In this document: piece after piece, positions 28,725 to 64,000 of the stretch
Layout of the letters: each line of letters starts with the position of its first letter
How positions within the stretch are numbered: the stretch's first letter is position 1
From: a virus
Lineage: Duplodnaviria; Heunggongvirae; Uroviricota; Caudoviricetes
DNA length: 64,000 bases
Reading direction: 5' to 3' (one strand)
Virus record (IMG/VR): IMGVR_UViG_3300032007_000008
The notes under the pieces: generated by a model
Seen by the model: the letters and a program-made list of their open reading frames with translations, nothing else
What the model was told of the DNA's origin: nothing
Databases searched by the model: none
Translations under genes and position numbers: made by a program

Positions 28725-28858
28725 CATATACCCCACCCCCTCCCCATACCCCCCTTACCCCCCCTCCTGAGGGGGGGGGGTACATGGATATAGGGTTATA
28801 ACTGTATATATTTCCCCCTTACCCCCCATATTATATCACATATGGCATCCAATGTCAA
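28725..28858 (-). other. promoter-driven non-coding G-tract locus
   Basis: TTGACA-17-TATAAT (28858-28830) firing into GGGGGGTAAGGGGG...C10-TCAGGA-G7-TAAGGGGGGTATGGGGAGGGGGTGGGG; no RBS or ORF. Confidence 0.55.
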
Positions 28859-29003
28859 GAAGAAAAATGTATAAATTTTTTTCAAAAAACCTCTTGACAA
28901 ATCTCCTTCTCTCTAATCATGTTCTTTTCTCCCACCACAAAAAAGAGGACGGTGACAGACCACCCTCAGTCCATCACCGTCCATCAACCCAAATCCAAAT
29001 CCT

Positions 29004-29513
29004 CTACGCTCCGAGCCGACGCGACAGGTCTCCAATCCTCTTGTAGAACCCAGCCGTGTGCAGTGACTTCTCCAGACCGAGCAGTTGCATATCTATGTGG
29101 TGGCACAGTTCATGCACGGCAGTTTCAAAGAAGGACTTGGCTGCGCGTCTCTGTCCCTTCATTGCGGTCAGGTTCCAAATCCTAATCTCTATCGCGCAGT
29201 TGCCGAGATGCTTGTAGTGGCCGAGCTTGCCGCCGCCGAACCGACCGTTGTCCTTTGTACTGTGGGGGCATGGGGTATCAACCACCACGACGCGGACGGA
29301 GGGGATGTGGAGTTTGCCGCACACATAGTCCACGAGTTCCTGCGTCTTGGACTGCCTGTAGTTTGCCGTGTCCCTCTTGGCTTCCACGATTGCCGAGCGG
29401 TAGGACGAGGACAGACGAGGGCAGTTGGGAATAGTCTCTATCGAGTTTGACTGTATGTAGTCAGCCGAGGAAGATGCCGAACCGCCGAAAGACCTACGAA
29501 AGAAACGAGCCAT
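29004..29513 (-). CDS. HExxH zinc metallopeptidase-like early protein
   Basis: TAVHELCHHID...LHTAGFY; follows promoter module. Confidence 0.8.
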   Translation of the reverse strand: MARFFRRSFGGSASSSADYIQSNSIETIPNCPRLSSSYRSAIVEAKRDTANYRQSKTQELVDYVCGKLHIPSVRVVVVDTPCPHSTKDNGRFGGGKLGHYKHLGNCAIEIRIWNLTAMKGQRRAAKSFFETAVHELCHHIDMQLLGLEKSLHTAGFYKRIGDLSRRLGA

Positions 29514-29735
29514 TTGTTGTTTTCTCCTTTGACTGTTGTGTCCTTTGAACGCCGCCTATTATATCATAATAGGGTTTCCGTGTCAAGGGGGTCATGGAAA
29601 TAAAAACAGGATTGTGAAAAAAGTCGCCTTACCCCCTTGACAAAACATCTTCTCTCCAATCCTGTTTTCCTTTTACATAAAATGAAAAGGGGGTGGCTAT
29701 TCGGCCAGACCCCCTTTGTCTGAAATCCTACTGTT

Positions 29736-29957
29736 TCAAATCCCCCTGTTGGCTATGTCCTCCACCCACCCCTTGAACTTCTCAATGTCCTCGTCCGTCA
29801 GGTTGTCGGAGAAGCAGGCACCCGTGACGCTTTCCGTGCCGTCCTTCTCGTATTCCTCGTATTCCTCGGTTGTCATGTCCCTCTTCTCGTCGGCAATGCC
29901 GTATGCCGCTTCAAGCAGGTGGCAAAGCCATTCCTTCCAGTCAATCTTGTCGTTCAT
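29736..29957 (-). CDS. acidic hypothetical early protein
   Basis: GGAGA RBS, in cassette. Confidence 0.7.
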   Translation of the reverse strand: MNDKIDWKEWLCHLLEAAYGIADEKRDMTTEEYEEYEKDGTESVTGACFSDNLTDEDIEKFKGWVEDIANRGI

Positions 29958-29981
29958 TTCTCCATTTCCTCCGCTTGGTTG

Positions 29982-30161
29982 TCAAAACGGCTTGACAGTC
30001 TCGCCCTCGCCCTCGGTGTCTGTCACCTTCGGCTGGTGGAACTCCGCCACGGTGTCGGCGCAATGCCTGCACACAAGCAGTCTCCCTCCCTCCACGGTTT
30101 CAACCTCCACGGAACGCGCCATGTCCTCGCCGCCGCCACAGTTTCCGCATACGAACTCCAT
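29982..30161 (-). CDS. small zinc-finger protein
   Basis: CGNC...CRHC; AAAGGAG RBS. Confidence 0.65.
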   Translation of the reverse strand: MEFVCGNCGGGEDMARSVEVETVEGGRLLVCRHCADTVAEFHQPKVTDTEGEGETVKPF

Positions 30162-30180
30162 CGTGTACACTCCTTTCGCT

Positions 30181-30495
30181 TCAGGCCGCAATGACGCGGT
30201 ATGACATTATAATCCGTCCGCCCTCGCCATCACCGGAACACTCGTAGGAAAGCGCAAGCCCCTTTTTGGAAAGCCACGCGGCAATGGCTCTGTTCGCTTG
30301 GCAGAAGCCCTCGTATCTGTCGGGCTTGTAGTAGAACAGAACATTCAGGAAGTCGCAGAACTCGTCCGTGGGGTCTTCCTCGTTCTGATGCGGACAGACC
30401 TCCACCTCAACCTCGTTTGTCTTGGCGATGCGCTCCGCGAACTGCGAAACTTCGCGCAGTCCGCCTGCAATCTCTATTGCTTCCTTCGCTCTCAT
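30181..30495 (-). CDS. hypothetical early protein
   Basis: First gene after promoter module. Confidence 0.75.
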   Translation of the reverse strand: MRAKEAIEIAGGLREVSQFAERIAKTNEVEVEVCPHQNEEDPTDEFCDFLNVLFYYKPDRYEGFCQANRAIAAWLSKKGLALSYECSGDGEGGRIIMSYRVIAA

Positions 30496-30696
30496 TGTCG
30501 GTTCTCTCCTTTTATGTCCTTGAAACGCCGCCTATTATATCATAATAGGGTTTTCGTGTCAAGGGGGTCATGGAAAGTTTTTTGAAAAAACCGAAAAAAC
30601 CGCCTTACCCCCCTTGACAAAACAGCTTCTCTCAAATGGGATTTCGCCAAAGGGGAAACGGCGGAACGGGTTTCAACCGTCCCGCCGCCGGTTCAG

Positions 30697-31908: not shown

Positions 31909-32156
31909 TTTCTTTTCTCCTTTAGGGGTTTGGGTTGTTTGTCTGTTATGTCCTCAAAACGCCGCCTATTATAGCATAATAGGGTTTCCGTGTCAATGGG
32001 TTCGGCGAAAAAGTTTGAAAAAGTTATCTACAGGTTGTGAACATTCTGTCGGCAACCGAACCTCCGCCACGGAGAAGCCGTCATGTCAAGCGAAATCTGC
32101 GGAAAAATCCACACGGCAAAAACGCCGTGTGGTATCTTGGGAATGTGCGTGTACGG

Positions 32157-32555
32157 TCACGATGCTTGGTATATCACATACATCTTGTTCCACTTGCGAC
32201 TGTCGGCAAGAGCCTTGACGAACAGATGCCCATGTCGGTCAGAACTTACGCGAATGTATGTCCAGCCCTTGTCAATCATGCCGCCGACAACCTGCCCGAC
32301 ATATCGGGAGAGATACTGTTTCGCTTCAAGTCTGGTGTCCCAGTGGCCGTCAAGATGCAGTACGCCTGTCTTGTAGTCCGTGAACGAGCGGTGGATGATA
32401 TGTTCGCTTGAAATGCACTTCCCGCTTTTGAAATAGCCCTCTTCGTCTGTAGGCCCAATGTCCGAATACTCGCGGATGAGCCACTTCTTAGACTGCTTCT
32501 TGGACAACGCCGCTTTCGTCTTGCGCGTCTTGGCCTTTGTGGTTTTCTTGGTCAT
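32157..32555 (-). CDS. hypothetical early protein, basic N-terminus
   Basis: First gene after promoter module. Confidence 0.75.
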   Translation of the reverse strand: MTKKTTKAKTRKTKAALSKKQSKKWLIREYSDIGPTDEEGYFKSGKCISSEHIIHRSFTDYKTGVLHLDGHWDTRLEAKQYLSRYVGQVVGGMIDKGWTYIRVSSDRHGHLFVKALADSRKWNKMYVIYQAS

Positions 32556-32756
32556 GGTTTCTCCTTTGGGTTGTTTTGAAAACGCCGCCTATTATAACAT
32601 AATAGGGTTTTCGTGTCAAGGGGTTCCAACAGGATTTTCATGGATATTTTCTGGCCGCTTCTGAAAAACATCCCCAAGCCCGTCCACAGAGAAGCCGTCT
32701 TGTCAAGAGGCTTTTTGAAAAAAAAAGAGACGGCGCGAACGCCGTCCCAGACCGAT

Positions 32757-33206
32757 TCAGGCCGCCGCGACCCACATCGGGTTTCTGCTATAGCCGCCTT
32801 CAAGCCGTGACGGAAGATAGCGGAGTTCCTTGTGGAGTTCTCCGTATCTACGCGCCGCTTCCTCGCGCACAACCTGAAAGTGGGCATAGAGGGAAAAGTC
32901 CTTCAACTCGTCCTCGGTGGCGTTGTCAAAGGCCAACTCCATGAGAAGTTGCGAAATGTTGTCACCGATTCCCCTGTAATACGAAATCACCAGGGAGATT
33001 CTGTCCCAACCGCCGCGCCAATGCTGACCCCAAATGTCCACGGGGCCGTGCTCCAGCATCAACCTCGGCTCTTTCAGATATTCCTTCGTCCTCTTGAACA
33101 TCGCGTCATGGTTGCTTGTGGTGTTGCCCGTGTTCACCCAGTCCCGACCCTCGCAACTGCTGATAATGTCATTCAGATACTTGTCCGTTATGTCCTCAAT
33201 CTTCAT
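32757..33206 (-). CDS. hypothetical early protein
   Basis: GGAGA RBS. Confidence 0.7.
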   Translation of the reverse strand: MKIEDITDKYLNDIISSCEGRDWVNTGNTTSNHDAMFKRTKEYLKEPRLMLEHGPVDIWGQHWRGGWDRISLVISYYRGIGDNISQLLMELAFDNATEDELKDFSLYAHFQVVREEAARRYGELHKELRYLPSRLEGGYSRNPMWVAAA

Positions 33207-33245
33207 TTTTCGTTCTCTCCGTTCGTTGTCCTTGAAGCTGACGGC

Positions 33246-33749
33246 CTACCGACTGCGGCGAAGTTTGGCCGCTTCGCGGGAAAGCCTGCGCCACTCGCGC
33301 AGAAGCCGCGTTTCACAGATTGAAAAGTTCCCTTCTGGGGACGAAATGCAATCCAACTTTTCAATCTCCATCAGGCGAAGCGCAACCTCAACGCACTCGG
33401 CTCCAAACTTCTTCTGCTCCGGAGTGGAATCCGCTCCCGCTCCGTTTATGCCGTACATTGCGAACTTGAACGCCAAATCGTTCGTCCTGTCACGCGAACG
33501 GTCTGGGCGGTTCTCCCTGCGAATGTTGAAGTATGCCGCGATAGCATCAAGACTGCGGAATCCCGCAAGCCATCCCTGCATCACGGAAAGCACAAGCCAT
33601 TCCTCAAAATCGTCCGTGTGTCCGCCATCCTCTGGGACAGGCTCCAGACCCGTTTCCTGCTCGTATATGTCAAGCCACAGGTTCTGCATATCCTTGCCGA
33701 TTACCGCATCAAGCAGTTCTTCGTGGTTCTTGAAAGATGAATCCATCAT
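33246..33749 (-). CDS. hypothetical early protein
   Basis: Start moved to ATG after module RBS. Confidence 0.75.
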   Translation of the reverse strand: MMDSSFKNHEELLDAVIGKDMQNLWLDIYEQETGLEPVPEDGGHTDDFEEWLVLSVMQGWLAGFRSLDAIAAYFNIRRENRPDRSRDRTNDLAFKFAMYGINGAGADSTPEQKKFGAECVEVALRLMEIEKLDCISSPEGNFSICETRLLREWRRLSREAAKLRRSR

Positions 33750-33960
33750 TTTCTTTTCTCCTTTGGGTTGTTTTGAAAACGCGCCTATTATAACATAATA
33801 GGGTTTTCGTGTCAAGGGTGTCCACCGAAATTTTCTGTTTTTTTTCCTCGGTTGCCTGTCCTGTCCGCAGAGAAGTGGATTTGTCAAGAGATTTCTCAAA
33901 AAAAAACAAAAAAAGCGGCGGCGCACCAGCACCGCCGCACCCTTTGGAGATGATTAAATC

Positions 33961-34155
33961 CTAATAGGCCGAAGTATCGTCAAACATTTCGTAGATGTCC
34001 ACGCCCTCGGTATCCTGACCCTCGTATTCCTCAAGTTCGTCCTCCGCTCCGCACTCGGGGCAGACGAGAACGCCATCCTCGTTTTCCTGACAGTCCGACT
34101 GCACGACATGGCCGCAACAGTTGCACCACATTTCGTAGGTTCTGCTTCGTGGCAT
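33961..34155 (-). CDS. acidic zinc-ribbon protein
   Basis: CNCC...CPECG. Confidence 0.7.
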   Translation of the reverse strand: MPRSRTYEMWCNCCGHVVQSDCQENEDGVLVCPECGAEDELEEYEGQDTEGVDIYEMFDDTSAY

Positions 34156-34169
34156 TTTCTTTTAACTCC

Positions 34170-34256
34170 TTACATTTTGCTGATTTTCACGATGACTGCT
34201 ACACAGAGAGCGACAAACGCAGGTTCAAAAAGCGATGCTATGACGATTGGTTCCAT
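34170..34256 (-). CDS. 28 aa hydrophobic peptide
   Basis: MEPIVIASLFEPAFVALCVAVIVKISKM directly after module RBS. Confidence 0.6.
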   Translation of the reverse strand: MEPIVIASLFEPAFVALCVAVIVKISKM

Positions 34257-34451
34257 GGGTTTCTCCTTTGTCCCTTAAACGCCGCCCATTATAGCATATC
34301 GCAGTTTCAAAGTCAAGGGGCTACATGGACTTTTCTGATTTTTTTTTCGGCAAGTCCAAAAGCCCGTCCACGGAGAAGCTGACCTGTCAAGAGGATTTTG
34401 AAAAAACAAAAAAAGTTGCGGCGGAAAACCGCCGCAACCGCCGAAACTCCA

Positions 34452-36626: not shown

Positions 36627-36818
36627 GTTGTTCTCCTTTGCTTTTGTCCCTTAAACGCCGCCCATTATAGCATATCCGCGTTTCAAAGTCAAGGGGGAAA
36701 TCAGAAAAACCTTAAAAAGTTGTGAACAGGTTATAAACAGGTTGTGAACAAAAAAAAACGCAAAATTGCGCTTGACACGGACGCTTCTCGCGTGTCGCGT
36801 TTTCGCTGAAAAATCCTC

Positions 36819-37018
36819 TTGACTTTTGCCCTTGGCCGTGGTATAATCGAAGGACGCGCAGAAAATCCGTCGAGAGCCGAGAGGACGCGGATACCCCCTC
36901 CGTCAATGGCGGAGAGGGTTCACCTGATAGAGGAAACGCCCCCAGAACATCAGGTAGGTCGCACAGAACGAGAGTATTTCGTATGGGGTCATGTCTGCCT
37001 TTCGCCGTCACCTTCCCT
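36819..37018 (+). ncRNA. candidate ~165 nt structured ncRNA with its own promoter
   Basis: TTGACT-17-TATAAT at 36819-36847; complementary ends GAAGG/CCTTC; internal hairpins; no RBS-led ORF. Confidence 0.5.
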
Positions 37019-37222: not shown

Positions 37223-37489
37223 TCAGAGAGCCACGGTAATGCGTGGGGTCTTTTCAATGGGAAGGTCCCAGAAGCCGTCAGAGAAGAACGACCTGACGTG
37301 AGCGCAGGTCGTGTTGGACCTGTAGGACGAGAAGCGATGCTCCTTGCCCTTGGGGTCGATGCCGCCCATTATGGTGTCATAGGAGCGCAGATACTTCCAT
37401 CCGCCCTTGACGATTACCTTTGCCTTTCCGTAGAAGGACTTGCGTCCGTTGCACGGCGTGAGGTCGTAGATTTCGGTGGTTCTTTTCAT
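37223..37489 (-). CDS. hypothetical early protein
   Basis: KSFYGKA...LRSYDT...TT..HVRSF motif; first after module. Confidence 0.8.
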   Translation of the reverse strand: MKRTTEIYDLTPCNGRKSFYGKAKVIVKGGWKYLRSYDTIMGGIDPKGKEHRFSSYRSNTTCAHVRSFFSDGFWDLPIEKTPRITVAL

Positions 37490-42419: not shown

Positions 42420-42576
42420 TTGATTCTCCTTTGATGTCCTCAAAACGCCGCCTATTATAGCATAATAGGGTTTCCGTGTCAAGGGGTAATCTGAAAAAAA
42501 AAAACAAAAAAAAATGTCAAGAAAATGCTTGACAAATCCACTTCTCGGCTGATGCGCATTTTTTCGCATTGCCGCT

Positions 42577-42605
42577 TGACTTTTCATCCGCGTTATGGTA
42601 AGATT
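42577..42605 (+). promoter_or_regulatory. counter-oriented promoter without a gene
   Basis: TTGACT-17bp-TAAGAT followed by leader-like GGGCGTTTTTCAAAAGACA. Confidence 0.5.
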
Positions 42606-42685
42606 GTGGGCGTTTTTCAAAAGACAGAAAAGGCGCGACCGATAACGGACGCGCCAACTGTTCCAAGGCTCGGCAACGCCGCGCC

Positions 42686-43505: not shown

Positions 43506-43967
43506 TCAATCCCAATAATTCGCCACGTGTCCGCATTTTGAGCACTCTCCGCCCTCCCATCCGTCGAACGAATGGCAGTTCGGGCAATACGGCATATCAA
43601 CCCTCTTCCAATGCTTCAATCCCTGTTTCCTCGCCCATTCCTCGAATAACTGGCTTTCCTGCCGCCCAATGAGATAGGCGCGTGAGTTGTAGTCGCTATA
43701 GTGGAAGTCCTCGCGCTTTGTCTCGTCATTCTTCGGTTCGGGCTTCTTCGGCGGAATCACCTTTCCGTTTCCGTATGCCGTTGCTATTTCGTTCAGCACC
43801 TTTTGGCTCACGTCATCCTCGCTACAGGAGAACTTGCAGTTGGGGTAGTTTGAGCAACCGACGAACACGCCGTACTTTCCACGCCGCTCCACAAGTGCGC
43901 AACCGCATTTTGGGCAACGTTCGTAGTTGTGCGGCGGCTCGATTTCACAATCGTCGTAAAGGCTCAT
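43506..43967 (-). CDS. topoisomerase-type C4 zinc-finger protein
   Basis: CPKCG..LVERRGKYGVFVGCSNYPNCKF plus C-terminal CxxC pairs. Confidence 0.82.
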   Translation of the reverse strand: MSLYDDCEIEPPHNYERCPKCGCALVERRGKYGVFVGCSNYPNCKFSCSEDDVSQKVLNEIATAYGNGKVIPPKKPEPKNDETKREDFHYSDYNSRAYLIGRQESQLFEEWARKQGLKHWKRVDMPYCPNCHSFDGWEGGECSKCGHVANYWD

Positions 43968-45360: not shown

Positions 45361-45418
45361 TTGTTTTCTCCTTTTGTCCTTGAAACGCCGCCTATTATAG
45401 CATAAACGGCTTTTCGTG

Positions 45419-45724
45419 TCAAGTGCGTTTGCAGAACTTTTCCCAATTTTCCACGCCAAGCACCTTTGCAGTCTCCGCAAACGCATGAAACCAGAACTTT
45501 TCTCCGTTTTCGTCCTCGCACATGAGGGCTATGCCGTCATTTCGCGGACGGACGGCGAGACGGGACGGGTCGCACCATCCAACCGCGCTCTTCTTCACCG
45601 CCTTGAAGTAGTTGTCCTTCTCGAAAATGTCGGGATACATCGAATGGAGAAGGCCGAGCCTGTCACCGAAGTTCAATTCGTACCGCTCGTATGTGAACAA
45701 TTCAGGATTCAATTCCGGCAACAT
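45419..45724 (-). CDS. hypothetical early protein
   Basis: AAGGAG RBS. Confidence 0.7.
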   Translation of the reverse strand: MLPELNPELFTYERYELNFGDRLGLLHSMYPDIFEKDNYFKAVKKSAVGWCDPSRLAVRPRNDGIALMCEDENGEKFWFHAFAETAKVLGVENWEKFCKRT

Positions 45725-46346: not shown

Positions 46347-46616
46347 TCAAATCGCGGAAACATTGTCAAGCGGCGGAAGCGAATCAAGGTCGAAAATGTC
46401 CCATACGCAACCGCTTTGCCCAACCACCGCCCACACCTCTCGCTTCGCAAGGTCGAACTTCTCGACCCCAATCCCATTTCCCACAAGGTTGTCATGGTAC
46501 GATGCCATGTCCTCTCCGACGAACTTCGCCGCCTTGTCCTTGTCTGGGTATCTGCCGAGAAGCCGCGTGTGTCCGTCGCAGGTCTCGCCATAGTCTGTAG
46601 CAGTCACGATAAACAT
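46347..46616 (-). CDS. hypothetical early protein
   Basis: First after module; C-terminus runs through the next promoter. Confidence 0.7.
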   Translation of the reverse strand: MFIVTATDYGETCDGHTRLLGRYPDKDKAAKFVGEDMASYHDNLVGNGIGVEKFDLAKREVWAVVGQSGCVWDIFDLDSLPPLDNVSAI

Positions 46617-46675
46617 GGTTTGTCTCCTTTGTGTCCTTTAGATGCCGCCTATTATAGCAAAACAGGATTTCAAAG

Positions 46676-46900
46676 TTAAGTGTCAATTTTGGAATAGTGG
46701 ATGATTGTGTAGTCCCTCGTCACGCCGTTCTTGTTCTTGTCGGTTCTCGTCTCCGTCCGTTCGTGCCTGTAGCCGCGTGGAGAGCAGTAGCAACCGTAGT
46801 ATGTGTTTCTTGAAACGCGCCGTCCGTCCACATAGTAGTGCGTGGCGTACATCATGCTTATACCGTTGAAAAGGGAAAAGTCGATTATCGTCACTTTCAT
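46676..46900 (-). CDS. hypothetical early protein
   Basis: YYVDGRRVSR motif. Confidence 0.65.
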   Translation of the reverse strand: MKVTIIDFSLFNGISMMYATHYYVDGRRVSRNTYYGCYCSPRGYRHERTETRTDKNKNGVTRDYTIIHYSKIDT

Positions 46901-47121: not shown

Positions 47122-47420
47122 ATCATGTCCTCCGCCAATGCGTCCGTGTCCTCGATAATGTCCTCGATGCGGTCAGATACGCCAATGTTCTTCAAACTCT
47201 TGCAGAAGTCGATAATGTCGTCAAGTGTCTCAAAATGCTTGTCGAAACCGTAAACCGCGTCCACGAACATATCGTAGCATTTCGCTCCCTTCTTCGTAAA
47301 GCACTCGATTACCTCCCCCTCCGCGTTCTTCTTGACGCGGGACAGTAGAAGTTTCTGCTTCTTTCCTCCGTTGAAGAAATTGGCGAGAAGTGCTTCCAGA
47401 TTTGTCGCTTCCTTGCTCAT
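47118..47420 (-). CDS. hypothetical early protein, paralog of 57314..57589
   Basis: LEALLA..NGGKK...FTKKG. Confidence 0.75.
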   Translation of the reverse strand: MSKEATNLEALLANFFNGGKKQKLLLSRVKKNAEGEVIECFTKKGAKCYDMFVDAVYGFDKHFETLDDIIDFCKSLKNIGVSDRIEDIIEDTDALAEDMI

Positions 47421-47603
47421 GTCGTTCTCCTTTTGTCCTTGAAACGCCGCCTATTATAGCACAACAGGATTGTGAAGTCAAGGCCGAAACGAAAGAAAGT
47501 CAAAAAAAAAACTTTCAGAAAGTCCTTGACAAATCAGCTTCTCTTTGGTAGGAATGTGCTTAAAATGAAATGGGGTGTGTCATTTTGACACACCCCAACT
47601 TCG

Positions 47604-48297: not shown

Positions 48298-48444
48298 TTT
48301 GTTTTCTCCTTCTGTTGTCCTTGAAACGCCGCCCATTATAGCAAATCGGATTCCCAAAGTCAATCCCCAAAACGAAAAATCCTAAAAAAGTTATGAACAG
48401 GTTATGAACAGGTTGTGAACAGGAAAATAATTTCATTTTCCATC

Positions 48445-48473
48445 TTGACACGGAGACTTCTCCTGCCTATAAT
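48445..48473 (+). promoter_or_regulatory. counter-oriented consensus promoter built on a CTTGACA-N6-CTTCTC copy
   Basis: TTGACA-cggagacttctcctgcc-TATAAT. Confidence 0.6.
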
Positions 48474-52926: not shown

Positions 52927-53175
52927 GGGTTTCTCCTTTTTGTCCTTGAACGCCGCCCATTATAGCACAACAGGATTGTGAAGTCAAGGGGACTGACGAA
53001 GATTTTTCAAAAAAAAAACTTTCAGAAAACCCTTGACAAATCAGCTTCTCTTTGGTCGAGAAGAGTTTGAAAAAAAAAATAAAGGGGACTGACGGCGTGT
53101 GTTGTTCAAGGAGAGCCGTCAGTCCCACGCAACGTCCGCCCGCATGGATTAGCGGGGAGAAAACGCGGACTTGCG

Positions 53176-53344: not shown

Positions 53345-53653
53345 TTATGCAGCCTTTCCGTAGGTGTAAGAAATCTCTCCGCGAAGTTCGCAGTTCACGT
53401 ATTCCGCCTGTTTGAGGAACTGTTCAAGTTCGCCGATGTGATATGCGATGTCGGTCTTTTCAAGGCAACCCCGCGTGTTCAGGTAGCCGACCTGACGGCA
53501 ATGCGCACCGTCTCCCCATGCGTCGAAGAAGCAGGTTCTACCTTGGTGGCGGACAACCATCTTGTCCCAATGAACCACCTTTGAAGGCCCATCGCCGTCT
53601 CTGCCGCCGACCCACATATACGTGGGACTGTAGTTGCTCTGTTCGCTACTCAT
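53345..53653 (-). CDS. hypothetical early protein
   Basis: First gene after module. Confidence 0.7.
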   Translation of the reverse strand: MSSEQSNYSPTYMWVGGRDGDGPSKVVHWDKMVVRHQGRTCFFDAWGDGAHCRQVGYLNTRGCLEKTDIAYHIGELEQFLKQAEYVNCELRGEISYTYGKAA

Positions 53654-54020: not shown

Positions 54021-54704
54021 TCAAAGTGCGATTTTCACGTACACGCCGACATTCTTCGTGTCGGCCTTGGCCTGTTCTCTCTTGTTTGCCATTCCGCGAA
54101 AACTCTCAATGCGAGACTTGATGGCTTCCTGCGCAGAATCCCACAGGAACTTCGTCTGCGACTGCGAGTTCTTGGCGAGAAAGTAGATGTACCGCCACGT
54201 TTCCGCGTTGTACTTTCCGTCAAGGTTGTATTGCGGCGCATTGTGCTTCGTGAGAGAACTGCTTGAGCAGATTCTGTACTGCGGAAGCGAAGTGTCTGAC
54301 GTATAAGCGCGGACTTCCACGATGTTCACGCAGTCTGGCGTGACCTTCGCGTACAGTCCGCCTGCGTTTCCCTTCCAATACTTCATGTTAGGCGGAGGGG
54401 TGAGCCAAAACGCGATGTCAAAGAACTTCGTGATGTGCGCAACAACCATGTACTGCGAACAGAACATATCGTTGAAACCCGAGTTGTCTATGCGGAGATT
54501 GTTGAAGTCAAGGAAAAGCTCCTTGTTTTCGCGGATTGTCTTGGTAAGGAAGTCTTGAATCTCCTTGTAGTCCTGCATTGCGGCCTTTGCGAACGCCGCA
54601 ATCTTTTCGTCATGGTAAACCTCGTTCATCTTCTCCGCAACTTCCTTCATGGAAGCGAGGTCTTTGACGAGATTTTTGATGTTGGTTATGTCAGCCTTTG
54701 TCAT
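54021..54704 (-). CDS. hypothetical early protein
   Basis: First gene after module. Confidence 0.75.
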   Translation of the reverse strand: MTKADITNIKNLVKDLASMKEVAEKMNEVYHDEKIAAFAKAAMQDYKEIQDFLTKTIRENKELFLDFNNLRIDNSGFNDMFCSQYMVVAHITKFFDIAFWLTPPPNMKYWKGNAGGLYAKVTPDCVNIVEVRAYTSDTSLPQYRICSSSSLTKHNAPQYNLDGKYNAETWRYIYFLAKNSQSQTKFLWDSAQEAIKSRIESFRGMANKREQAKADTKNVGVYVKIAL

Positions 54705-54892: not shown

Positions 54893-55237
54893 TTACCGTG
54901 TGGTCTTAGCAATCTTGGCCAAATCTTCCGGCGAATACTTCTTGCCGACCACAAGACGGTCCCAAATCTTTCCCGTGAACTGCGGAAGGCCGACATTTGC
55001 GCTCCAGCGGTTCAAATGCCCCATAGAGGTCTTGGAGTAGCCGAACCAAAGCCGCACGAAACGACCATCTGGGGTTTTCATTGCGATTGGCGAACGGTAC
55101 GAAATGCACACGTCATATCCGTTCTTCGCAAGGCGATAGACACTTCCGTGCCACGGCGCACCGTGATAGAGTTTCTCCCAATTCTTCTTGGGGGTGAGCA
55201 TGAGTTTGTCGAGCATCTTGAACTCGCGTTTGGTCAT
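54893..55237 (-). CDS. hypothetical early protein
   Basis: ISYRSPI...YSKTSMGHL motif, distantly like 37223..37489. Confidence 0.75.
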   Translation of the reverse strand: MTKREFKMLDKLMLTPKKNWEKLYHGAPWHGSVYRLAKNGYDVCISYRSPIAMKTPDGRFVRLWFGYSKTSMGHLNRWSANVGLPQFTGKIWDRLVVGKKYSPEDLAKIAKTTR

Positions 55238-56473: not shown

Positions 56474-56648
56474 GGCTTCTCCTTTGTCCCTTAAACGCCG
56501 CCAATTATAGCATATCAGGATTGTGAAGTCAAGGGGGTCGCAGAAGATTCTTCAAAAAAAAACTTTCAGAAATTCCTTGACAAATCAGCTTCTCTTTGTT
56601 TGCGCAGACTGAAATCAAAAGGCGGCGGATTTCTCCGCCGCCGTTCCG

Positions 56649-57589: not shown

Positions 57590-57758
57590 GTTTCTCCTTT
57601 TATGTCCTTGAAACGCCGCCCATTATACCATATCAGGATTGTGAAGTCAAGTGGTACCCGCAGAAAAAATTTCAAAAAATCCTGTTCCGCCCACTTGACT
57701 TTTCAAAAGGCATCTGCTATAATAGGCGGCGTTTCAAGGACAAAAAGGAGAATCGAAT

Positions 57759-57950
57759 ATGAGAGAGCCTAAGTTCAGCACAGGTCAGAACGTGACCTTC
57801 GTGCAGTTCGACGAAGAGAAAAAGGAGTTTGTCAACCTGAAGGGAACCGTGGCGGACTACCGTCTCGGCTATCAGGACTTCTCCTACGACATCACAGGAG
57901 AGGACGGAAAGGACTACTTCTCCGTTCCGGAGTGCGCAATCAGGGCATAG
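57759..57950 (+). CDS. small SH3-like early protein
   Basis: PKFSTGQNV; first after module. Confidence 0.75.
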   Translation: MREPKFSTGQNVTFVQFDEEKKEFVNLKGTVADYRLGYQDFSYDITGEDGKDYFSVPECAIRA

Positions 57951-57978
57951 GCGAAATTAAGAGAAAGGATACCTAAAC

Positions 57979-58269
57979 ATGAAAAAGAAAACCATTACGG
58001 CAATCATGGACGACATCGTTAGGATGATGACCTCCTGCGGTGTGCAGTCAATCAACCTGAAAAACGGCGACGGAGAGGGGATTGAACTTCCAATCCGTTT
58101 TCCAAAGGGAGACGAGCATGAAGACCTGCACTTCTGCATCGACGTTCTGTACTCTTCCCTGAACGCGGACGATTGCTTTTTCCGCGCTTGGCACCTTCCG
58201 TCCGTAATCAAGGACTTGAAGATTTGGGAGTGCCTGCAATCCATCGTGAGGGAAGAACTCGGACTGTGA
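57979..58269 (+). CDS. hypothetical early protein
   Basis: AAAGGA RBS. Confidence 0.7.
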   Translation: MKKKTITAIMDDIVRMMTSCGVQSINLKNGDGEGIELPIRFPKGDEHEDLHFCIDVLYSSLNADDCFFRAWHLPSVIKDLKIWECLQSIVREELGL

Positions 58270-58305
58270 TTTTGTATCGAAAGAAGAAACAAAGGAGTAT
58301 CTGAA

Positions 58306-58542
58306 ATGGCGAAGGACAACAAGAAGGCCGGAGTGGTGAAGGATGACGGCGAGTTCCGCGAGGTCATGATTCAGTTGCTGACAAGCTCGGTATCGTCCGA
58401 CTACGCGCACCACATCGCGGACAAGATTTTCAAGGCCGTGAAGGAGGACGTGAACGAGTGCGCAAGCGAGGACTGGAGCCTTGGCGATGTCGCATACGGA
58501 ATCGGTCGCGTACTCATGAAGAAACTCCGCATCGAAGTCTGA
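58306..58542 (+). CDS. hypothetical early protein
   Basis: AAGGAG RBS. Confidence 0.7.
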   Translation: MAKDNKKAGVVKDDGEFREVMIQLLTSSVSSDYAHHIADKIFKAVKEDVNECASEDWSLGDVAYGIGRVLMKKLRIEV

Positions 58543-58726
58543 CTTGACGCGGCGGACGGACGGTTTTCGTCCGTCCGTTCCTCTTTTGGCCGAAAGGCTT
58601 TCATGGAGAAGTGATTTTGTCAAGGGGAATCTCGCAGAAAAATTTTGTTTTTTCTTTCTGTTTGCCCTTGACTTCACAATCCTGATATGCTATAATGGGC
58701 GGCGTTTAAGGGACAAAGGAGACAAC

Positions 58727-59086
58727 ATGAAAACCACAGACAAGTTCAGATACCAGACCTACGGCGGCTTCTATACCTGCCAGTTCGCAACCGGCAGATA
58801 CGGAAACGGAAACCTCGCCCTTGAAGCAATGGGCGCGGAAGGAACGCAGGAAGAGGGAGACCCTATCGTCCGCGTGACGGTGAACCCCGGAGTGCCTGTG
58901 CCGGAAGACTGCATTGCGGTCAAGAACTACAGCGAGAACGAGGGGATGGACAATCTTCTCATCAGCCTTGGAATCATCGAAGACACGCCCGTGGCTCGCA
59001 TACCGAGCGGTTTCGTGGAGATTCCCGTTTACCGTCTCACGGAGAGCGGCAAGGAACTGTTCAAGGACAACCGTCAGGAGGTGTGA
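58727..59086 (+). CDS. DUF4313-like protein
   Basis: YGNGNLAL...TVN...VKNYSENEG...SGFVEIPVY. Confidence 0.75.
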   Translation: MKTTDKFRYQTYGGFYTCQFATGRYGNGNLALEAMGAEGTQEEGDPIVRVTVNPGVPVPEDCIAVKNYSENEGMDNLLISLGIIEDTPVARIPSGFVEIPVYRLTESGKELFKDNRQEV

Positions 59087-59087
59087 A

Positions 59088-59291
59088 ATGGCTATTCCAA
59101 AGCGTCTGAAAAGCATTACGAAGGAAAAGGCCGAGAGCCTAATCAACAAGCACCTCAAGGCCGGAGACGGCTATTGGGAGGGAAGCCCCATGTATTCGGA
59201 CTTCATTTACGGCACGGGATTCAAACTCACGCTTCTCCGTCCGCCATGCGGTTGCTGGGGCGATTGGGAGACCGGTCCTGTTTCGCTTTAA
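59088..59291 (+). CDS. hypothetical early protein
   Basis: AGGAGG RBS. Confidence 0.65.
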   Translation: MAIPKRLKSITKEKAESLINKHLKAGDGYWEGSPMYSDFIYGTGFKLTLLRPPCGCWGDWETGPVSL

Positions 59292-59306
59292 GGAAGGGAG
59301 ACTGCC

Positions 59307-59507
59307 ATGCGCAAGTTTAGGGTGTTTAGGGAAGTCATTGTGATTCTCGAACGGGAAATCGAAGCGGAATCCTTCAATGACGCAAGGACGAAGATGCAAA
59401 CGAGCACCATAACGCCGGATGACATTGCGAAGGGCGAGGTCGCAGATTCCAAGATAACGGGGGCGGAGGACACGTCCAACGGAGAGTTGCACTACTTCGA
59501 CGATTAG
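59307..59507 (+). CDS. DpnD/PcfM-like small protein
   Basis: EIEAESFNDARTK. Confidence 0.65.
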   Translation: MRKFRVFREVIVILEREIEAESFNDARTKMQTSTITPDDIAKGEVADSKITGAEDTSNGELHYFDD

Positions 59508-59603
59508 GGGTAGTGCAACAAAAATCTTTCGATTCCCCCTTGACTTCACAATCCTGTTTTGCTATAATAGGCGGCGTTTCAAGGACAACAAAAGGAGAAA
59601 ACA

Positions 59604-59759
59604 ATGAACGCAGAAGAACTGACAGACATCATCTACAACGCGCTCAAACTCGACAGCCGCGAATGGTCGATGGAGTTCGACGATTACAATCCGCAGGTCA
59701 TTCACATCAAGCACGAAGAGAGCGAAGAAGAGTTCAAACTCACAATCTCCAAGGAGTGA
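59604..59759 (+). CDS. 51 aa acidic early protein
   Basis: First after module; manual translation. Confidence 0.65.
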   Translation: MNAEELTDIIYNALKLDSREWSMEFDDYNPQVIHIKHEESEEEFKLTISKE

Positions 59760-59763
59760 CACC

Positions 59764-60006
59764 ATGCCGAAGAACGAAATGGCAACCGCGTATGTCATGG
59801 AGACCGCGAAGGGCGAGTTCCTTCAGGTGCTTCACGGCCCTGACGGAAACGCAATCAGTCTCGACTTCACCAATAGCATCTGGGAAGCCTATTGGGGGAA
59901 GTCCAAGGACTGCCTTGAGGGGTTTACTGGGTATATCGACGACGGTTTCAAGCGTGGCTATCCAAAGTACCACAAGGTGCGGCTGTCGTGCGAGTTCGTG
60001 GACTGA
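59764..60006 (+). CDS. hypothetical early protein
   Basis: AAGGAG RBS. Confidence 0.7.
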   Translation: MPKNEMATAYVMETAKGEFLQVLHGPDGNAISLDFTNSIWEAYWGKSKDCLEGFTGYIDDGFKRGYPKYHKVRLSCEFVD

Positions 60007-60020
60007 AGGGGGAGAGAACG

Positions 60021-60365
60021 ATGAAGAAAGCCTTTGCGAAGAGGGGTAGGAAGCCCTACCCCAAGCACAAACTGACAGAAGCCGAACACGACTTCGTGTG
60101 CCTGATGGCCGACACGACGCAATGCAACTGGTTCACGATAGCAGGTTCGACAATCGACCTTGCCACAGGCAAGCGTCTTCACTTCAAGTCTGACGAGTAC
60201 GACTGCGTGTACGACCTTGAGCGTCGGCGGTTCATCTCGTTGCAGTACGGTCTTCGGCTTCTGATGGAAGCGTTCGAGGGAGGTGGACATCTCGACGGAC
60301 TGCGGGGGCGAAGCGACGAACTGAAGGTCTGGAACCGCCTATGCGAGATTGTTCGCGGCAAGTGA
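60021..60365 (+). CDS. hypothetical early protein
   Basis: GGAGA RBS. Confidence 0.7.
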   Translation: MKKAFAKRGRKPYPKHKLTEAEHDFVCLMADTTQCNWFTIAGSTIDLATGKRLHFKSDEYDCVYDLERRRFISLQYGLRLLMEAFEGGGHLDGLRGRSDELKVWNRLCEIVRGK

Positions 60366-60392
60366 GAATTGTATCCAAAGGAGAAACATTGC

Positions 60393-60749
60393 ATGGCAAG
60401 GGAAAGAATGTCATACGTCGATAGTGCCTTCTACGTCGTTCTCGGCGAAGACGGTTGGTGGATGTGCAACCCGGAATCCCCCTATGACAGGAAGTACGGA
60501 AAGGAAAACATCGCCACAGACTGCGGAAACCCGATGAACGCCGTGAGGTTCGACTTCGCATGGGACGCCGAGAGGTACATAGACGAGAACTGGCCGAGCG
60601 TCGGCGGTAAGACGCGGCCTGTCGTGGAACTCGTGGAGTTGAAGGTCAGCGTGAAGACCGTCAAGAAGCCTGAGCCTTGGAGCGGAAAGCGCGGCTGTGC
60701 GAAAAAAGTTCAGAAAAAATCCAAATCGCGCTTGACTTCAAAGGCTTGA
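60393..60749 (+). CDS. hypothetical early protein
   Basis: AAGGAGA RBS; C-terminus runs into the next promoter. Confidence 0.7.
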   Translation: MARERMSYVDSAFYVVLGEDGWWMCNPESPYDRKYGKENIATDCGNPMNAVRFDFAWDAERYIDENWPSVGGKTRPVVELVELKVSVKTVKKPEPWSGKRGCAKKVQKKSKSRLTSKA

Positions 60750-60801
60750 TTTGGTATAATGTGCGGCATCAAAGGGAATTGTATCCAAAGGAGAAACAAC
60801 A

Positions 60802-61158
60802 ATGGGCAACACTACAGAGCGTTCATCGACGTACAATGGCAAGAAGATTGAGATTCTTTCCAGCGGCAACAGGTACATCTACGTCGTAGTTCGCAAACTT
60901 ACGAAGAAGGACCACGTCACCTACGGCGAGGAAAGCGGTCGGCTTGCGAAGGTTCGCGACAAGGACTGGGGCTTCGTCGCTCTTGAAAACACGGAATCCA
61001 AGGCGCGTCGTTCGATGGAGCGTTGCGTCGAGGCGTGGCAGATGACAGGTGACTACGGCGAAGTGTTCGGCGTTGCGTCGTTCATCGGCGGAAAGTTCAT
61101 CCTTCTCGACGCGATGACCGTGGAGAAGCCCGCAAAGAAGGGGAAGAAGAATGTGTGA
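60802..61158 (+). CDS. hypothetical early protein
   Basis: First gene after module. Confidence 0.75.
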   Translation: MGNTTERSSTYNGKKIEILSSGNRYIYVVVRKLTKKDHVTYGEESGRLAKVRDKDWGFVALENTESKARRSMERCVEAWQMTGDYGEVFGVASFIGGKFILLDAMTVEKPAKKGKKNV

Positions 61159-61741
61159 TTCCATGGTGTACCGCTACAAGAGGGACGAGGTGTTCGCCCT
61201 CATGCGACGGATTGCCGAGACCGAGGGAGTGAAGGTAACGTTCCTCAAGAAGAACCAAGGGTGGGGCGGCTACAACTACGGAGCGAGCGCAGGCGATGAA
61301 ATCATGCTTGCTCCGTTCAAGAAGTTGAAGGTGGACGGATTCAATCCGAACTCGTCCGAACACGACTGCACGAACCCGCTTGAATGTATGCTAATCTCGT
61401 TCTTCCACGAACTTTCGCACATCAAGCTGACCAAAAAGGTTCCGTCCGTCGTAAAGGGACATTCGTGGAACGACACGAGCAAGTTCCAGTTCGAGTTGTG
61501 GATTACGATGCTTGGAATCGAGTACGCGCACTCGAAGTACGGAATAAAGTTCTCCGACGATACCGTGCAATGGATGCTCTACGAGGGGTTCACCTACGCG
61601 GTACACGAAAACGACGAGGATGACGGAGGGCTACACTATGGCCTTAGACAGAGGAAGGCCACAAGGAACGGCTACGAGGTCGTTTCAGAATGGGAGTACA
61701 GGGGCGATGGAAAGCCAAGAGTACAGAAACGGAAAGGTTAG
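61151..61741 (+). CDS. HExxH metallopeptidase-like protein
   Basis: ISFFHELSH...FE. Confidence 0.7.
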   Translation: MCDSMVYRYKRDEVFALMRRIAETEGVKVTFLKKNQGWGGYNYGASAGDEIMLAPFKKLKVDGFNPNSSEHDCTNPLECMLISFFHELSHIKLTKKVPSVVKGHSWNDTSKFQFELWITMLGIEYAHSKYGIKFSDDTVQWMLYEGFTYAVHENDEDDGGLHYGLRQRKATRNGYEVVSEWEYRGDGKPRVQKRKG

Positions 61742-61997
61742 GCTCTGCGGAATAGACTTCGATTATCCGTCCAACCTTCTTCCGAGGGAGATAACCAGAT
61801 GGACGGAGGGAAAAAGGACGAAACTTGTCGGCATCAACCTGTGCGAGTACCACAGAGAGGGAAATGCGACGGTATGCTGGCAGTACACGCTGTCGATGTC
61901 CAACTACGGAGGTTGCTTCCTCGACGGAAAGCCCCTTAAGGGGGATGACATCGAGAGGGCGAAGACAATCTTCAAGGAACTTTCGATTGCGCCTTGA
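61707..61997 (+). CDS. hypothetical protein
   Basis: In operon; stop lies inside the next -35 box. Confidence 0.6.
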   Translation: MESQEYRNGKVRLCGIDFDYPSNLLPREITRWTEGKRTKLVGINLCEYHREGNATVCWQYTLSMSNYGGCFLDGKPLKGDDIERAKTIFKELSIAP

Positions 61998-62043
61998 CTT
62001 TGAAAGAGGATTTTGCTAAAATGTCTAGCCAAAGGAGAACACT

Positions 62044-62349
62044 GTGAAAACGAAAAAGATTGCGAAATATTACGGATGCTTCTTCAGCGAAGGGGCGGAC
62101 GGAAGCGAAATCGTTGTCGAACACGACAATGTGCCGGTTGGAAAGGCCAAGGCGTGGTTCACCGAGTCGTTTCGGCATCATGTCGGCAAACTTCCCTCAG
62201 ATAGGAGGACAAGGCTGTTCATGGGGCTGGAGACCGTGACCGCACGGCGCGGAGGTCTTTCGATGAGGTGGGAAATTGGATTTACGATGCTCTCGGAGAG
62301 CAAGAAAAGGAAGAATGGAAATGTACATAAACCAAAAGCAGATAAGTGA
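62044..62349 (+). CDS. hypothetical protein
   Basis: GTG start after AAGGAGA. Confidence 0.65.
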   Translation: MKTKKIAKYYGCFFSEGADGSEIVVEHDNVPVGKAKAWFTESFRHHVGKLPSDRRTRLFMGLETVTARRGGLSMRWEIGFTMLSESKKRKNGNVHKPKADK

Positions 62350-62551
62350 CTTCTGGTTCGAGAAGAACGGAACTTTCACGGAGAAGGTAATCAACGGATA
62401 TGGAATCCGCAGAGAGGACAACAAGCCCCTCTACGACAGGATTCAGAAGATTCTCTTTCGGGACAAAAAGAGGTTCTATCGCGGAATCGCAATCACTACG
62501 GCTGAAACCGACCGAGAAATCACTCGGCTGATTGAAAAGTCCAAAGTGTAA
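62315..62551 (+). CDS. hypothetical protein
   Basis: In operon. Confidence 0.55.
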   Translation: MEMYINQKQISDFWFEKNGTFTEKVINGYGIRREDNKPLYDRIQKILFRDKKRFYRGIAITTAETDREITRLIEKSKV

Positions 62552-62783
62552 AGTTATCACAGTTGAAATCCCTCCTGCGGCAATAAATACCAATGGAGGG
62601 AACATGATACTGACAATCGAACGAGAGGACGGAACAAAGGTAAGTTGCACCTATCACGAATGTATAGACGCGCTCGAAAGGGGGTTGAGACACCATTTCC
62701 TGCTGACCCAATGGGAGAGGGACGAGTGCATGAAGGCCATTGAGAAGATTAGGATGAACTTCGTTCCAAAAAACACTAAATAG
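62532..62783 (+). CDS. hypothetical protein
   Basis: In operon; start uncertain. Confidence 0.55.
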   Translation: MKSPKCKVITVEIPPAAINTNGGNMILTIEREDGTKVSCTYHECIDALERGLRHHFLLTQWERDECMKAIEKIRMNFVPKNTK

Positions 62784-62803
62784 TGAGAAAGACTTAAACG
62801 ACT

Positions 62804-63868
62804 ATGAAAGACCTTGGAATCATAAAGGAAAAAAACGATTTTCACCGTCTGGGACACAACATGGTTTCATTCGGTACGCTCGACGATGGGGCGGCTAACG
62901 AGGAAATCGTGTCAAAGGCGGTCGGACACCACATCATCTACTTCGGGTACAGCGACTACGGCGGGGACATCTTCGAGAAACTCTGCTGTCAGTCCGTATG
63001 CGCGAAGGTTGATAAGCAGGAAATCGACCCCGACACCGTGCTTCACGAAAACACGGCATACAGCGGCGAGCAGATGCTTGTCCTTGGGGAACTCGCGGAC
63101 AAGATTGCGGAAGCGAACAACGACCCCTACCGCATTGCCGACGCAATCGGCTTCGACCTCGACGAGGATTTGACGAAACTGGAGTACAAGTACATCACCA
63201 ACGCCGTTGACTACATGGTTACTGAATTTCAGAACGACGGCCTTGAAGTCACGGAAGAGGACAGGGAGTTCATGTTCGAGTGGCTTGAACAGAATGGACG
63301 TTCCACCGCGAACGACTGGGACTTCAACAGCCAGGAACTCGAAAAGGTGTTCAAGGAAGAGCGCAAGGGCGTGAGCGAACTGCGTGAAAGCGTTTCCGAC
63401 ATCGTTGCGGCAAAGGTCGTGTACGACAAGGATGCTGATTCCTATACGCTTATGACAACCGCCGGCGACGAAATCTCAATCGGCTCCGTGGAAGATGCAA
63501 GGGAATATTGCCGGAAGCACGGACTTTCTCTCGTTTCCGACGACGCGGAAACCCTGACGGAATCCACTCTTGGCTATCCTACCGCTCTCGAATACTCCAT
63601 GGTGAGCGCAAGGGAGAACGCGAAGAAGATTATCGAGAACGCTAAGAAGATTCAGTCACTTCTCGAAACCCTCGAATCGTCCGACATGGACTCAAAGGAG
63701 TTCAAGGTGAAGTACGACGGAGGGAATCTCCTTTGGCTCATCGAACAGGAAGCGAACCTCATCGTCGAACACAGCGAATCGCTGAAGGACAAGCTCGCTG
63801 CGGCTGACAAGGCTTACGCCGAGGACATGGAACTTGTGAAAAAGGCGAGTTCACAGTCTGCGGAGTAG
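62804..63868 (+). CDS. putative late/internal head protein
   Basis: CTAAATA at 62776; acidic; internal LRES and LTES motifs. Confidence 0.7.
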   Translation: MKDLGIIKEKNDFHRLGHNMVSFGTLDDGAANEEIVSKAVGHHIIYFGYSDYGGDIFEKLCCQSVCAKVDKQEIDPDTVLHENTAYSGEQMLVLGELADKIAEANNDPYRIADAIGFDLDEDLTKLEYKYITNAVDYMVTEFQNDGLEVTEEDREFMFEWLEQNGRSTANDWDFNSQELEKVFKEERKGVSELRESVSDIVAAKVVYDKDADSYTLMTTAGDEISIGSVEDAREYCRKHGLSLVSDDAETLTESTLGYPTALEYSMVSARENAKKIIENAKKIQSLLETLESSDMDSKEFKVKYDGGNLLWLIEQEANLIVEHSESLKDKLAAADKAYAEDMELVKKASSQSAE

Positions 63869-63891
63869 AAATCAAGGCCGCAGTCTTTGGA

Positions 63892-63922
63892 AAGGGGGCT
63901 TTCAAGCCCTCTTTTTTTTTTT
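63892..63922 (+). terminator. intrinsic terminator
   Basis: AGGGGGCTT-TC-AAGCCCTCT followed by T run. Confidence 0.75.
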
Positions 63923-64000
63923 GCACTTACCCTCTTGACTTCCAAAACCGTTTTTGGTATAATTGTCGGCACAAAGGAGAAAAAGATGGACGGAGAAAAC

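Follow-up and report, generated by a model that had tools for sequence, protein, structure and literature searches.

The right-hand part of the window analysed here, the whole 64,000-nucleotide (64-kb) stretch of the tailed-phage record IMGVR_UViG_3300032007_000008 (Caudoviricetes), is occupied by an array in which one promoter-leader module recurs in front of small open reading frames (ORFs). A pattern scan of the window for TTGAC-N16-18-TATAAT returned 41 matches, against 0.03 expected from shuffled sequences; with the TG extension of the -10 element included, 43 exact TTGAC-N15-TGnTATAAT sites were found, all between 28830 and 63963. These counts bear out the estimate of about 43 promoter-headed cassettes made in a first-pass annotation of the sequence, to which a 44th, degenerate copy can be added. 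When a profile of the module was mapped across the window, as that annotation had proposed, all 43 exact sites were recovered together with one strong degenerate copy and two weak ones (42568-42633 and 61986-62023, both on the + strand), and the single match outside the array, at 3538-3562, corresponds to the -10/discriminator portion of the promoter of an RNA operon.

Layout of the array

The exact copies fall into two arms, with 37 on the - strand (28858 to 57650) and five on the + strand (57695 to 63963), and one further copy is counter-oriented (36819, +). The motifs had been written in the first-pass annotation as they would read on the + strand; the motifs hold, and the strand had to be changed for the 37 leftward copies. 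Co-directional neighbouring modules lie 273-3203 bp apart, with a median of 740 bp, which agrees with the recurrence every 0.3-1.4 kb described earlier except that the upper bound was set slightly too low. Guanine-cytosine (GC) and adenine-thymine (AT) skews are negative across the leftward arm and change sign near 58 kb, and the agreement of gene and module direction with the skew is taken as support for the two-arm reading. The array probably extends past the right end of the window.

The leftward arm also holds three counter-oriented promoter-like sites, at 36819-36847, 42568-42633 and 48445-48473, all on the + strand. The + strand ORFs downstream of the 48445 site look non-coding, and for this reason such sites may drive antisense RNAs. 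The last leftward promoter (28700-28858, -) is a perfect TTGACA-17-TGaTATAAT, preceded by a terminator and by the boundary box described below, and it carries neither the standard leader nor a ribosome-binding site. It fires into a stretch rich in G runs and C runs that faces the 3' end of a convergent gene of 538 amino acids (aa), and it may yield a small RNA or an antisense transcript.

Anatomy of the module

The elements that had been listed for the repeated unit are all recovered by the counts. The -35 element TTGAC(A/T) is directly preceded by CCC in 38 of the 43 exact modules; TGn followed by a perfect TATAAT is present in all 43; (A/G)GGCGGCG follows the -10 element in 30, and GGCG in 39; and an A or T run of at least five nucleotides lies within 60 nt upstream in 39. 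The spacer measures 17 bp in 40 modules and 18 bp in the other three, and AGGAG is found in 39. The conserved leader, GGCGGCGTTTCAAGGACAAAAGGAGA, has a median length of 28 nt when counted from an assumed start 7 nt after the -10 element. After the discriminator it runs through TTTCAAGGACA and AAAGGAGA to an ATG located 5-8 nt after GGAG. Leader sequences fold no better than shuffled ones (mean z = +0.35) and an Rfam search of the array gave no match, which led us to reject a structured leader or riboswitch.

The TGnTATAAT-GGGCGGCGTT core is also employed elsewhere. It heads the phage's own RNA/tRNA-like operon at 3520-3565 (+), as TTGCAT-17-TGcTATAAT and without the leader of the array. It also heads, as TTGAC-N15-TGcTATAATAGGCGGCGTT, a promoter of a Clostridia metagenome-assembled genome (MAG) from horse faeces (L004:6384-6422), and TTGAC-N15-TGcTATAATAGGCGGCGTT is found again on a 4.6-kb metagenome contig (L003:1146-1206), where it is accompanied by a leader-like GAAGGGCA. 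Beyond the phage, the module core was matched in these two sequences only, and neither has array proteins. The presence of the same -10/discriminator in the RNA operon and in the MAG promoter points to a working promoter design, not merely a repeat.

Two variations of the upstream region deserve mention. Tandem 11-bp repeats, CCTGTT(C/T)A(C/T)AA, stand in for the A/T tracts of three modules in two to three copies (36719-36741, 48390-48423 and about 32020-32040, all -), with five exact copies in the window against 0.7 expected. Two of these three modules are the ones with a divergent + strand promoter, and the repeats have the look of iterons or operators. (A)ATTTCTGAAAGTTTT is present in several A/T tracts (47490-47520, 52995-53025 and 56540-56570, all -). 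This motif agrees with about 12 of the 15 positions of the CodY-box consensus, AATTTTCWGAAAATT, possibly by chance in A/T-rich DNA.

Junction classes and the boundary box

The junctions between cassettes are of two classes. At the 24 class I junctions, the stop codon of the upstream gene lies 117-167 nt before the -35 element; a GC-rich hairpin and its T run come next, then a box of 19 bp, A and T runs, and the promoter. At the approximately 18 class II junctions, the stop codon lies 0-36 nt before the -35 element or inside the promoter itself, the box is absent and a hairpin is rare (2/18). At 43509 and 45422 the TGA of the upstream gene forms part of TTGACA, and at 46369 it forms part of the TGn in the extended -10 element (all -), which indicates extreme packing at class II junctions. 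With terminators called as hairpins of ΔG <= -13 followed by a T run, they are present at 22 of the 24 box-bearing junctions versus 2 of the 18 box-less ones (Fisher p = 1e-7). Strong hairpins with a T run thus mark 24 of 42 junctions and lie 100-130 bp upstream of the -35 element. The terminator hairpin ascribed to every unit in the first-pass annotation therefore holds for about half of them, chiefly those with a box, and fails at box-less junctions.

The box itself, GAGAAG-N6-TGTCAAG, was rightly said to be frequent: 24 exact copies are found against 0.09 expected, all within 28893-58624. Near-misses amount to two unrelated sites with two mismatches in the 64 kb, and the 13 fixed positions are invariant while the flanks diverge. 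The 20 copies that point in the direction of their cassette lie 52-69 nt before the -35 element, or twice 97-99 nt, and these offsets (-52 to -69 and -97/-99) show no strict helical phasing between box and promoter. An A run follows TGTCAAG within 10-20 nt in either orientation, so that the other strand of the box reads as an A/T tract plus CTTGACA, a UP/-35 half-promoter without a -10 element. Only at 48445 does a TATAAT stand at the right distance from the reversed box, which creates a complete antisense promoter. Since no -10-like hexamer occurs at the right distance in either orientation at the remaining copies, the box was rejected as a sigma-A promoter. A scan of IMG/VR for the box returned ten single matches with no shared proteins or modules, and no contig with more than one copy.

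The variable distance and orientation of the box, together with its place downstream of terminators, argue for a protein-binding site acting at the DNA level and not for an RNA signal. We predict that it most likely serves a phage or host factor as operator or insulator, or acts as a compact promoter belonging to a different class. A bolder proposal is that a dedicated phage protein binds the box and either recombines cassettes site-specifically or switches off or insulates the whole array as one regulon; we give this a small chance of being right. If it were true, the box-binding protein would constitute an undescribed layer of control over an architecture that resembles the promoter-early stem-loop (PeSL) cassettes of T4-type phages.

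Homology and exchange of parts among modules

Spacer positions that sigma-A does not read show a mean identity of 52%, and 78 of 703 module pairs share at least 13 of 15 such positions. Spacer identity drops with distance along the array (permutation p = 0.0006), with the ACGAAAACCCTATTA family predominant at 29-43 kb and the TTCACAATCCTG family at 47-60 kb. Exact matches of at least 30 bp link 37 module pairs, the longest being 61 bp (30562/41685), 59 bp (47481/51188), 57 bp (39707/40935) and 52 bp (36692/37549); the last of these confirms the identity over about 50 bp reported previously for 36645 and 37503. Families of 116-135 nt extend the similarity to the box and the A/T tracts.

Spacer and leader types are also found in different combinations. 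The spacer TTCACAATCCTGATA occurs with two leader types, GGCGGCGTTTAAGGGACA (56532, 58668) and GGCGGCGTTTCAAGGACA (57650), and leader GGCGGCGTTTAAGGGACA also follows TTTGAAAC... spacers (34316, 36692, 37549). For two spacer and two leader classes all four combinations are present, and leader types L1, L3, L6 and L7 are each combined with several spacer families. Identical spacers, reassorted spacer and leader types and the local character of the similarity together indicate that the modules are homologous copies that have exchanged parts. The reassortment suggests past exchange or gene conversion, with crossovers around the TGnTATAAT-GGCGGCG core. Exact repeats of up to 61 bp appear long enough to serve as recombination substrates, and recombinational shuffling of cassettes between relatives is plausible.

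Genes of the array

Start-site-aware ORF tiling placed 92 ORFs in the array, 87 of them of at least 40 aa (median 94 aa, longest 227 aa). Each cassette contains one to seven ORFs, mostly one to three; the small ORFs were correctly described as unrelated, and the range of one to five given for them was too narrow. Paralogs are few, namely 47118/57314 and the distant pair 54893/37223. None of the 87 ORFs matched Pfam (E <= 0.001), and the screen against defence systems that had been proposed for them, made with PADLOC at the same threshold, likewise returned 0 of 87. About 11 matches to PHROGs fall in ten families, nine of which are of unknown function; the sole match with a functional label, to a RecE-like exonuclease, is weak (E = 1e-4). 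Searches of the ESM Atlas, two AlphaFold models and Foldseek yielded a single clue to ORF function, a DUF8033-like fold: the AlphaFold model of a 114-aa protein (predicted local distance difference test score, pLDDT, 88) resembles DUF8033, a group of widespread phage proteins of unknown function. Coordinates of the features discussed here are collected in Table 1.

Table 1. Position, strand and main characteristics of the array and its individual features (window coordinates).
Feature	Coordinates	Strand	Characteristics
Whole array	28830-64000		At least 44 promoter-leader modules before about 90 small ORFs
Leftward arm	28830-57650	-	37 exact modules plus degenerate copy 46621-46682; genes on - strand
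Rightward arm	57695-63963	+	Five exact modules (57695, 58668, 59540, 60732, 63935); weak promoter-only copy 61986-62023
Back-to-back divergent promoter pair, 57650(-)/57695(+)	57622-57723		-35 boxes 45 bp apart; origin of both arms
Degenerate 44th module	46621-46682	-	-35 element TTAACT; TG, TATAAT and leader intact; profile E = 1e-15
Counter-oriented TTGACT-17-TGgTATAAT	36819-36847	+	Without standard leader
Counter-oriented perfect TTGACA-17-TATAAT	48445-48473	+	-35 element and spacer are the reverse complement of the box; aimed antisense into neighbouring cassette
Box set	28893-58624		24 copies, between terminator and A/T tracts of next promoter; 20 co-oriented with cassette
Four consecutive inverted boxes (32072, 32689, 33870, 34373)	32072-34391	+	Each abuts the T run of the upstream terminator
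Class I junction, example	47421-47597	-	Hairpin 47571-47597, box 47525-47543, A/T tracts, promoter 47453-47481; 32 nt from -10 to ATG (first base 47420)
Class II junction, example	45394-45422	-	No terminator or box; TGA of upstream ORF (45419-45421) within -35 TTGACA
227-aa ORF	54021-54704	-	Model matches nothing; homologs at 83, 78 and ~43% identity on ENA/Logan contigs
114-aa ORF	54893-55237	-	DUF8033-like fold; homologs at 80, 69 and 58% identity; distant paralog 37223-37489
102-aa ORF, adjacent cassette	53345-53653	-	Distant homologs only, <=48% identity, on other contigs
354-aa ORF	62776-63868	+	CTAAATA before it; between two early-type modules; strong terminator 63889-63916 after it

Genomic context and relatives

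The proteins of the window sit on a 291,652-bp contig. The part to the left of the array encodes Hsp70, a radical-SAM enzyme, a DNA methylase, a capsule-synthesis-like enzyme, and WGR-PARP and GNAT domains; the window has no core genes for structure or replication. Between 20600 and 26000 (-), a 5-kb run of small ORFs without the consensus promoters precedes the array. The motif CTAAATA (nine copies versus four expected) stands before most of the large genes that lie to the left of the array, within which it hardly occurs. Because the same motif precedes the 354-aa ORF (62804), as it does the large left genes, this ORF is probably not an early gene and is embedded in the right arm. Base composition also differs: GC content at third codon positions (GC3) is 0.67 in the array ORFs versus 0.51 in the large left genes. 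Overall GC is 52% for the array ORFs (28800-64000) versus 45% for the large left genes (1-22000), and 58% for the 538-aa gene at 26933. This contrast could reflect codon adaptation of early genes or a different origin.

Searches by DNA, by module pattern and by five protein families found no relative in INPHARED, IMG/VR, the JGI metagenome contigs or the GTDB genomes. Megablast of 14 kb and 24 kb of the sequence against INPHARED gave no nucleotide relatives, and tblastn against INPHARED found none either. Module pattern scans of IMG/VR, JGI metagenome contigs and GTDB genomes returned only single, chance-like or bacterial matches, and the loci L001-L005 have no proteins in common with the array. 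A protein-based locus search of IMG/VR found nothing for the 538-aa neighbour gene or for the 227-aa, 114-aa and 102-aa families; for Hsp70 it gave only matches of about 50-60%, which are uninformative.

Homologs on ENA/Logan contigs offer a limited and mixed view of gene order. The 227-aa and 114-aa families are each found on eight contigs in total, and each has a member on a 17,664-bp ENA contig. This suggests that the pair, which spans module 54766, is probably syntenic in relatives of about 80% identity. For the 102-aa gene, one module beyond the pair, a full HMMER search recovered only homologs of at most 48% identity, on contigs of other lengths. The pattern fits replacement or loss of this gene, and an ortholog of 50-60% identity could have escaped both searches.

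Interpretation and alternative explanations

Taken together, these observations make it likely that the array is the early-gene region, driven by host RNA polymerase, of an uncultured jumbo phage of about 292 kb with a probable Bacillota host. The extended -10 element, the long Shine-Dalgarno sequence and the look-alike promoter in the Clostridia MAG from horse faeces suggest that this host is probably a Clostridia-like member of the Bacillota. Two arms would diverge from 57650/57695 as at least 44 short transcription units, each preceded by the same standard part. Its upstream half would comprise A/T tracts in the position of a UP element, CCC-TTGAC(A/T), a 17-bp spacer ending in TGn, a perfect TATAAT and the G-rich discriminator GGCGGCG; its downstream half would consist of a leader of about 28 nt predicted to be unstructured, an upstream AAGGA and a strong AAAGGAGA Shine-Dalgarno sequence 5-8 nt before the ATG. 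Such a part would be read at once and strongly by the host's ribosomes and its unmodified sigma-A RNA polymerase, so that about 90 small proteins, most of them lineage-specific, would be made immediately and at a high level. A strong intrinsic terminator would close about 55% of the units and thus insulate them. In the remaining, tightly packed units the stop codon of the preceding gene touches the promoter or falls within it, and read-through would add to the output of the unit's own promoter. Exact direct repeats of 30-61 bp could allow homologous recombination to delete, duplicate or swap cassettes, as PeSLs do. On sequence features, the earlier interpretation of the locus stands as regards a block of small ORFan units built on a repeated module, an organization like that of SPO1 and T4, and repeats of a length suited to recombination.

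Several considerations weigh against this reading. The 227-aa and 114-aa genes seem to remain together in relatives, which indicates conserved order and not shuffling, and the persistence of long direct repeats at a spacing of about 0.7 kb could mean that recombination is rare or selected against. Start sites, timing and promoter strength are all predictions from consensus sequences, and the host assignment is drawn from the style of promoter and Shine-Dalgarno sequence and one MAG look-alike. A content of host-takeover or anti-defence genes is suggested by analogy with SPO1 and T4, and titration of host RNA polymerase, which had also been put forward, is speculative. Moreover, the confinement of the modules to the array holds for the 64-kb window of the 291,652-bp contig.

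The conserved order and the repeats lend some weight to a different account, in which the module is no more than a standard expression part whose copies stay alike through selection for strength, without gene mobility and with stable cassette content. The likeness of copies would then stem from promoters being duplicated locally, or converted, now and then while the cassettes themselves are not exchanged. Every conserved block does map to a known functional promoter or ribosome-binding element, the same -10/discriminator recurs beyond the array as well as in a bacterial MAG, two neighbouring genes appear syntenic in relatives, and direct repeats persist at high density. Selection for strength does not account as readily for spacer positions unread by sigma-A that are identical in up to seven copies, for flanks shared past the promoter in the 116-135-nt families, or for the reassortment of spacer and leader types. 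Tandem duplication alone would hardly place unrelated genes between homologous modules, and the 102-aa gene stands beside conserved neighbours without a close homolog. We regard stability without exchange as possible, although rather unlikely.

Two further explanations fare worse. The consensus promoters might act mainly as a sink for host RNA polymerase, with the small ORFs largely incidental: at least 44 promoters carry every known strength element, the boxes contribute 24 isolated CTTGACA -35-like sites preceded by A/T tracts, and promoter copy number would climb with replication of the phage DNA. Yet every module presents a strong, well-spaced ribosome-binding site, and an ORF comes after its open leader, as if the ORFs were built for translation; at least three of the ORFs tested have conserved homologs elsewhere. 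We consider a sink as the main function very unlikely. Hardest to sustain, and in our view extremely improbable, is a site-specific gene-capture system of the integron or shufflon kind in which the 19-bp box would be the recombination site of a dedicated phage recombinase. The all-or-none character of the box, with its 24 exact copies and two unrelated 2-mismatch sites in 64 kb, would suit such a site, as would its placement at cassette boundaries, the mostly common orientation, the diverged flanks and the four consecutive inverted copies. But the inverted boxes have no inverted genes beside them, a box is missing from about 18 of 42 junctions, and its sequence shows none of the inverted repeats that characterise attC or invertase sites. 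Nor was an integrase or recombinase domain found among the 87 array ORFs or the ten large window ORFs scanned, nine of which lie to the left of the array, and any other IMG/VR contig has one box at most.

If the modules are active as predicted, the early region proposed here would offer one strong promoter-leader part in about 44 natural replicates, which together drive about 90 small proteins of unknown nature. Early products of SPO1, T4 and T7 include inhibitors of host transcription, division, proteolysis and defence, and to our knowledge few host-takeover or counter-defence proteins have been described for Clostridia-like hosts. The array thus represents a candidate list for host-takeover and counter-defence screens in such hosts, and its promoter and 5' untranslated region could become a portable strong expression part.

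Comparison with known systems

The closest parallel is found in the PeSL cassettes of T4-type phages, known from RB49/phi1, T4/PST and KVP40/nt-1 (Arbiol et al. 2010, PMC2839356; Comeau et al. 2014, PMC4122927). These elements combine an AT-rich tract, a sigma-70 consensus promoter, a stem-loop that serves as terminator or attenuator and a Shine-Dalgarno sequence, lie between non-essential ORFans in hyperplastic regions that differ among close relatives, bound indels between such relatives and form mini-circles (PMC2839356, PMC4122927). Sequenced mini-circle crossovers fall between the -10 element and the ATG, and in RB49/phi1 the commonest positions of the stem-loop are within or overlapping the promoter boxes (PMC2839356). 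The array likewise consists of composite repeats (AT-rich tract, near-perfect sigma-70-type promoter, Shine-Dalgarno/ATG and, at part of the junctions, a stem-loop terminator) set between small ORFans, clustered in one part of a large virulent phage genome and carrying exact patches long enough for homologous recombination. The ORFan setting is reflected in the 0/87 results with both Pfam and PADLOC. The array departs from PeSLs in the extended -10 TGn, the G-rich discriminator, the long AAAGGAGA Shine-Dalgarno sequence and the type of host. Its stem-loop stands 100-130 bp upstream of the -35 element and at only about 55% of junctions, and it adds a standardised 5' leader and the invariant 19-bp box. 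The comparison is one of sequence features, the indels and mini-circles that define PeSLs being known from the T4-type phages.

The host-takeover module of the Bacillus phage SPO1 offers a second parallel. Its 26 early genes occupy a 12.4-kb terminal region and have strong promoters and ribosome-binding sites (Stewart et al. 1998; PMC6873191). The two regions, each in a large phage of a Bacillota host, a probable one in the case of the array, share a dense packing of small genes, early in SPO1 and probably early here, short operons with a strong sigma-A promoter and ribosome-binding site, and products mostly without known homologs; the array differs in being about three times longer, with about 90 ORFs, at least 44 promoters and two divergent arms. 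No relationship to SPO1 gp37-60 was detected in the PHROG and Pfam scans of the 87 ORFs, and none of the PHROG families matched is annotated as host takeover. Integrons resemble the array in their long one-directional rows of small unrelated genes with a repeated boundary element between them. However, integron cassettes are promoterless and are moved by an integrase at attC sites, whereas each unit of the array has its own promoter, no integrase domain was found in the array, and the box is asymmetric, without attC-like structure, and absent at about 43% of junctions.

As far as the sequence allows a judgement, the organization of the array resembles that of the early regions of SPO1 and T4. 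Its scale, which had been described as going beyond known examples, is large and not beyond known kinds. The array stands apart in its scale for a sigma-A-type promoter, with at least 44 copies within 35 kb, as well as in its standardised leader, its two classes of junction and its invariant box. The PeSL idea, in which regulatory repeats are landmarks for recombination, would reach with it beyond the T4-type phages of Gram-negative hosts to a jumbo phage that uses sigma-A, and the architecture would gain a new, strictly conserved boundary box.

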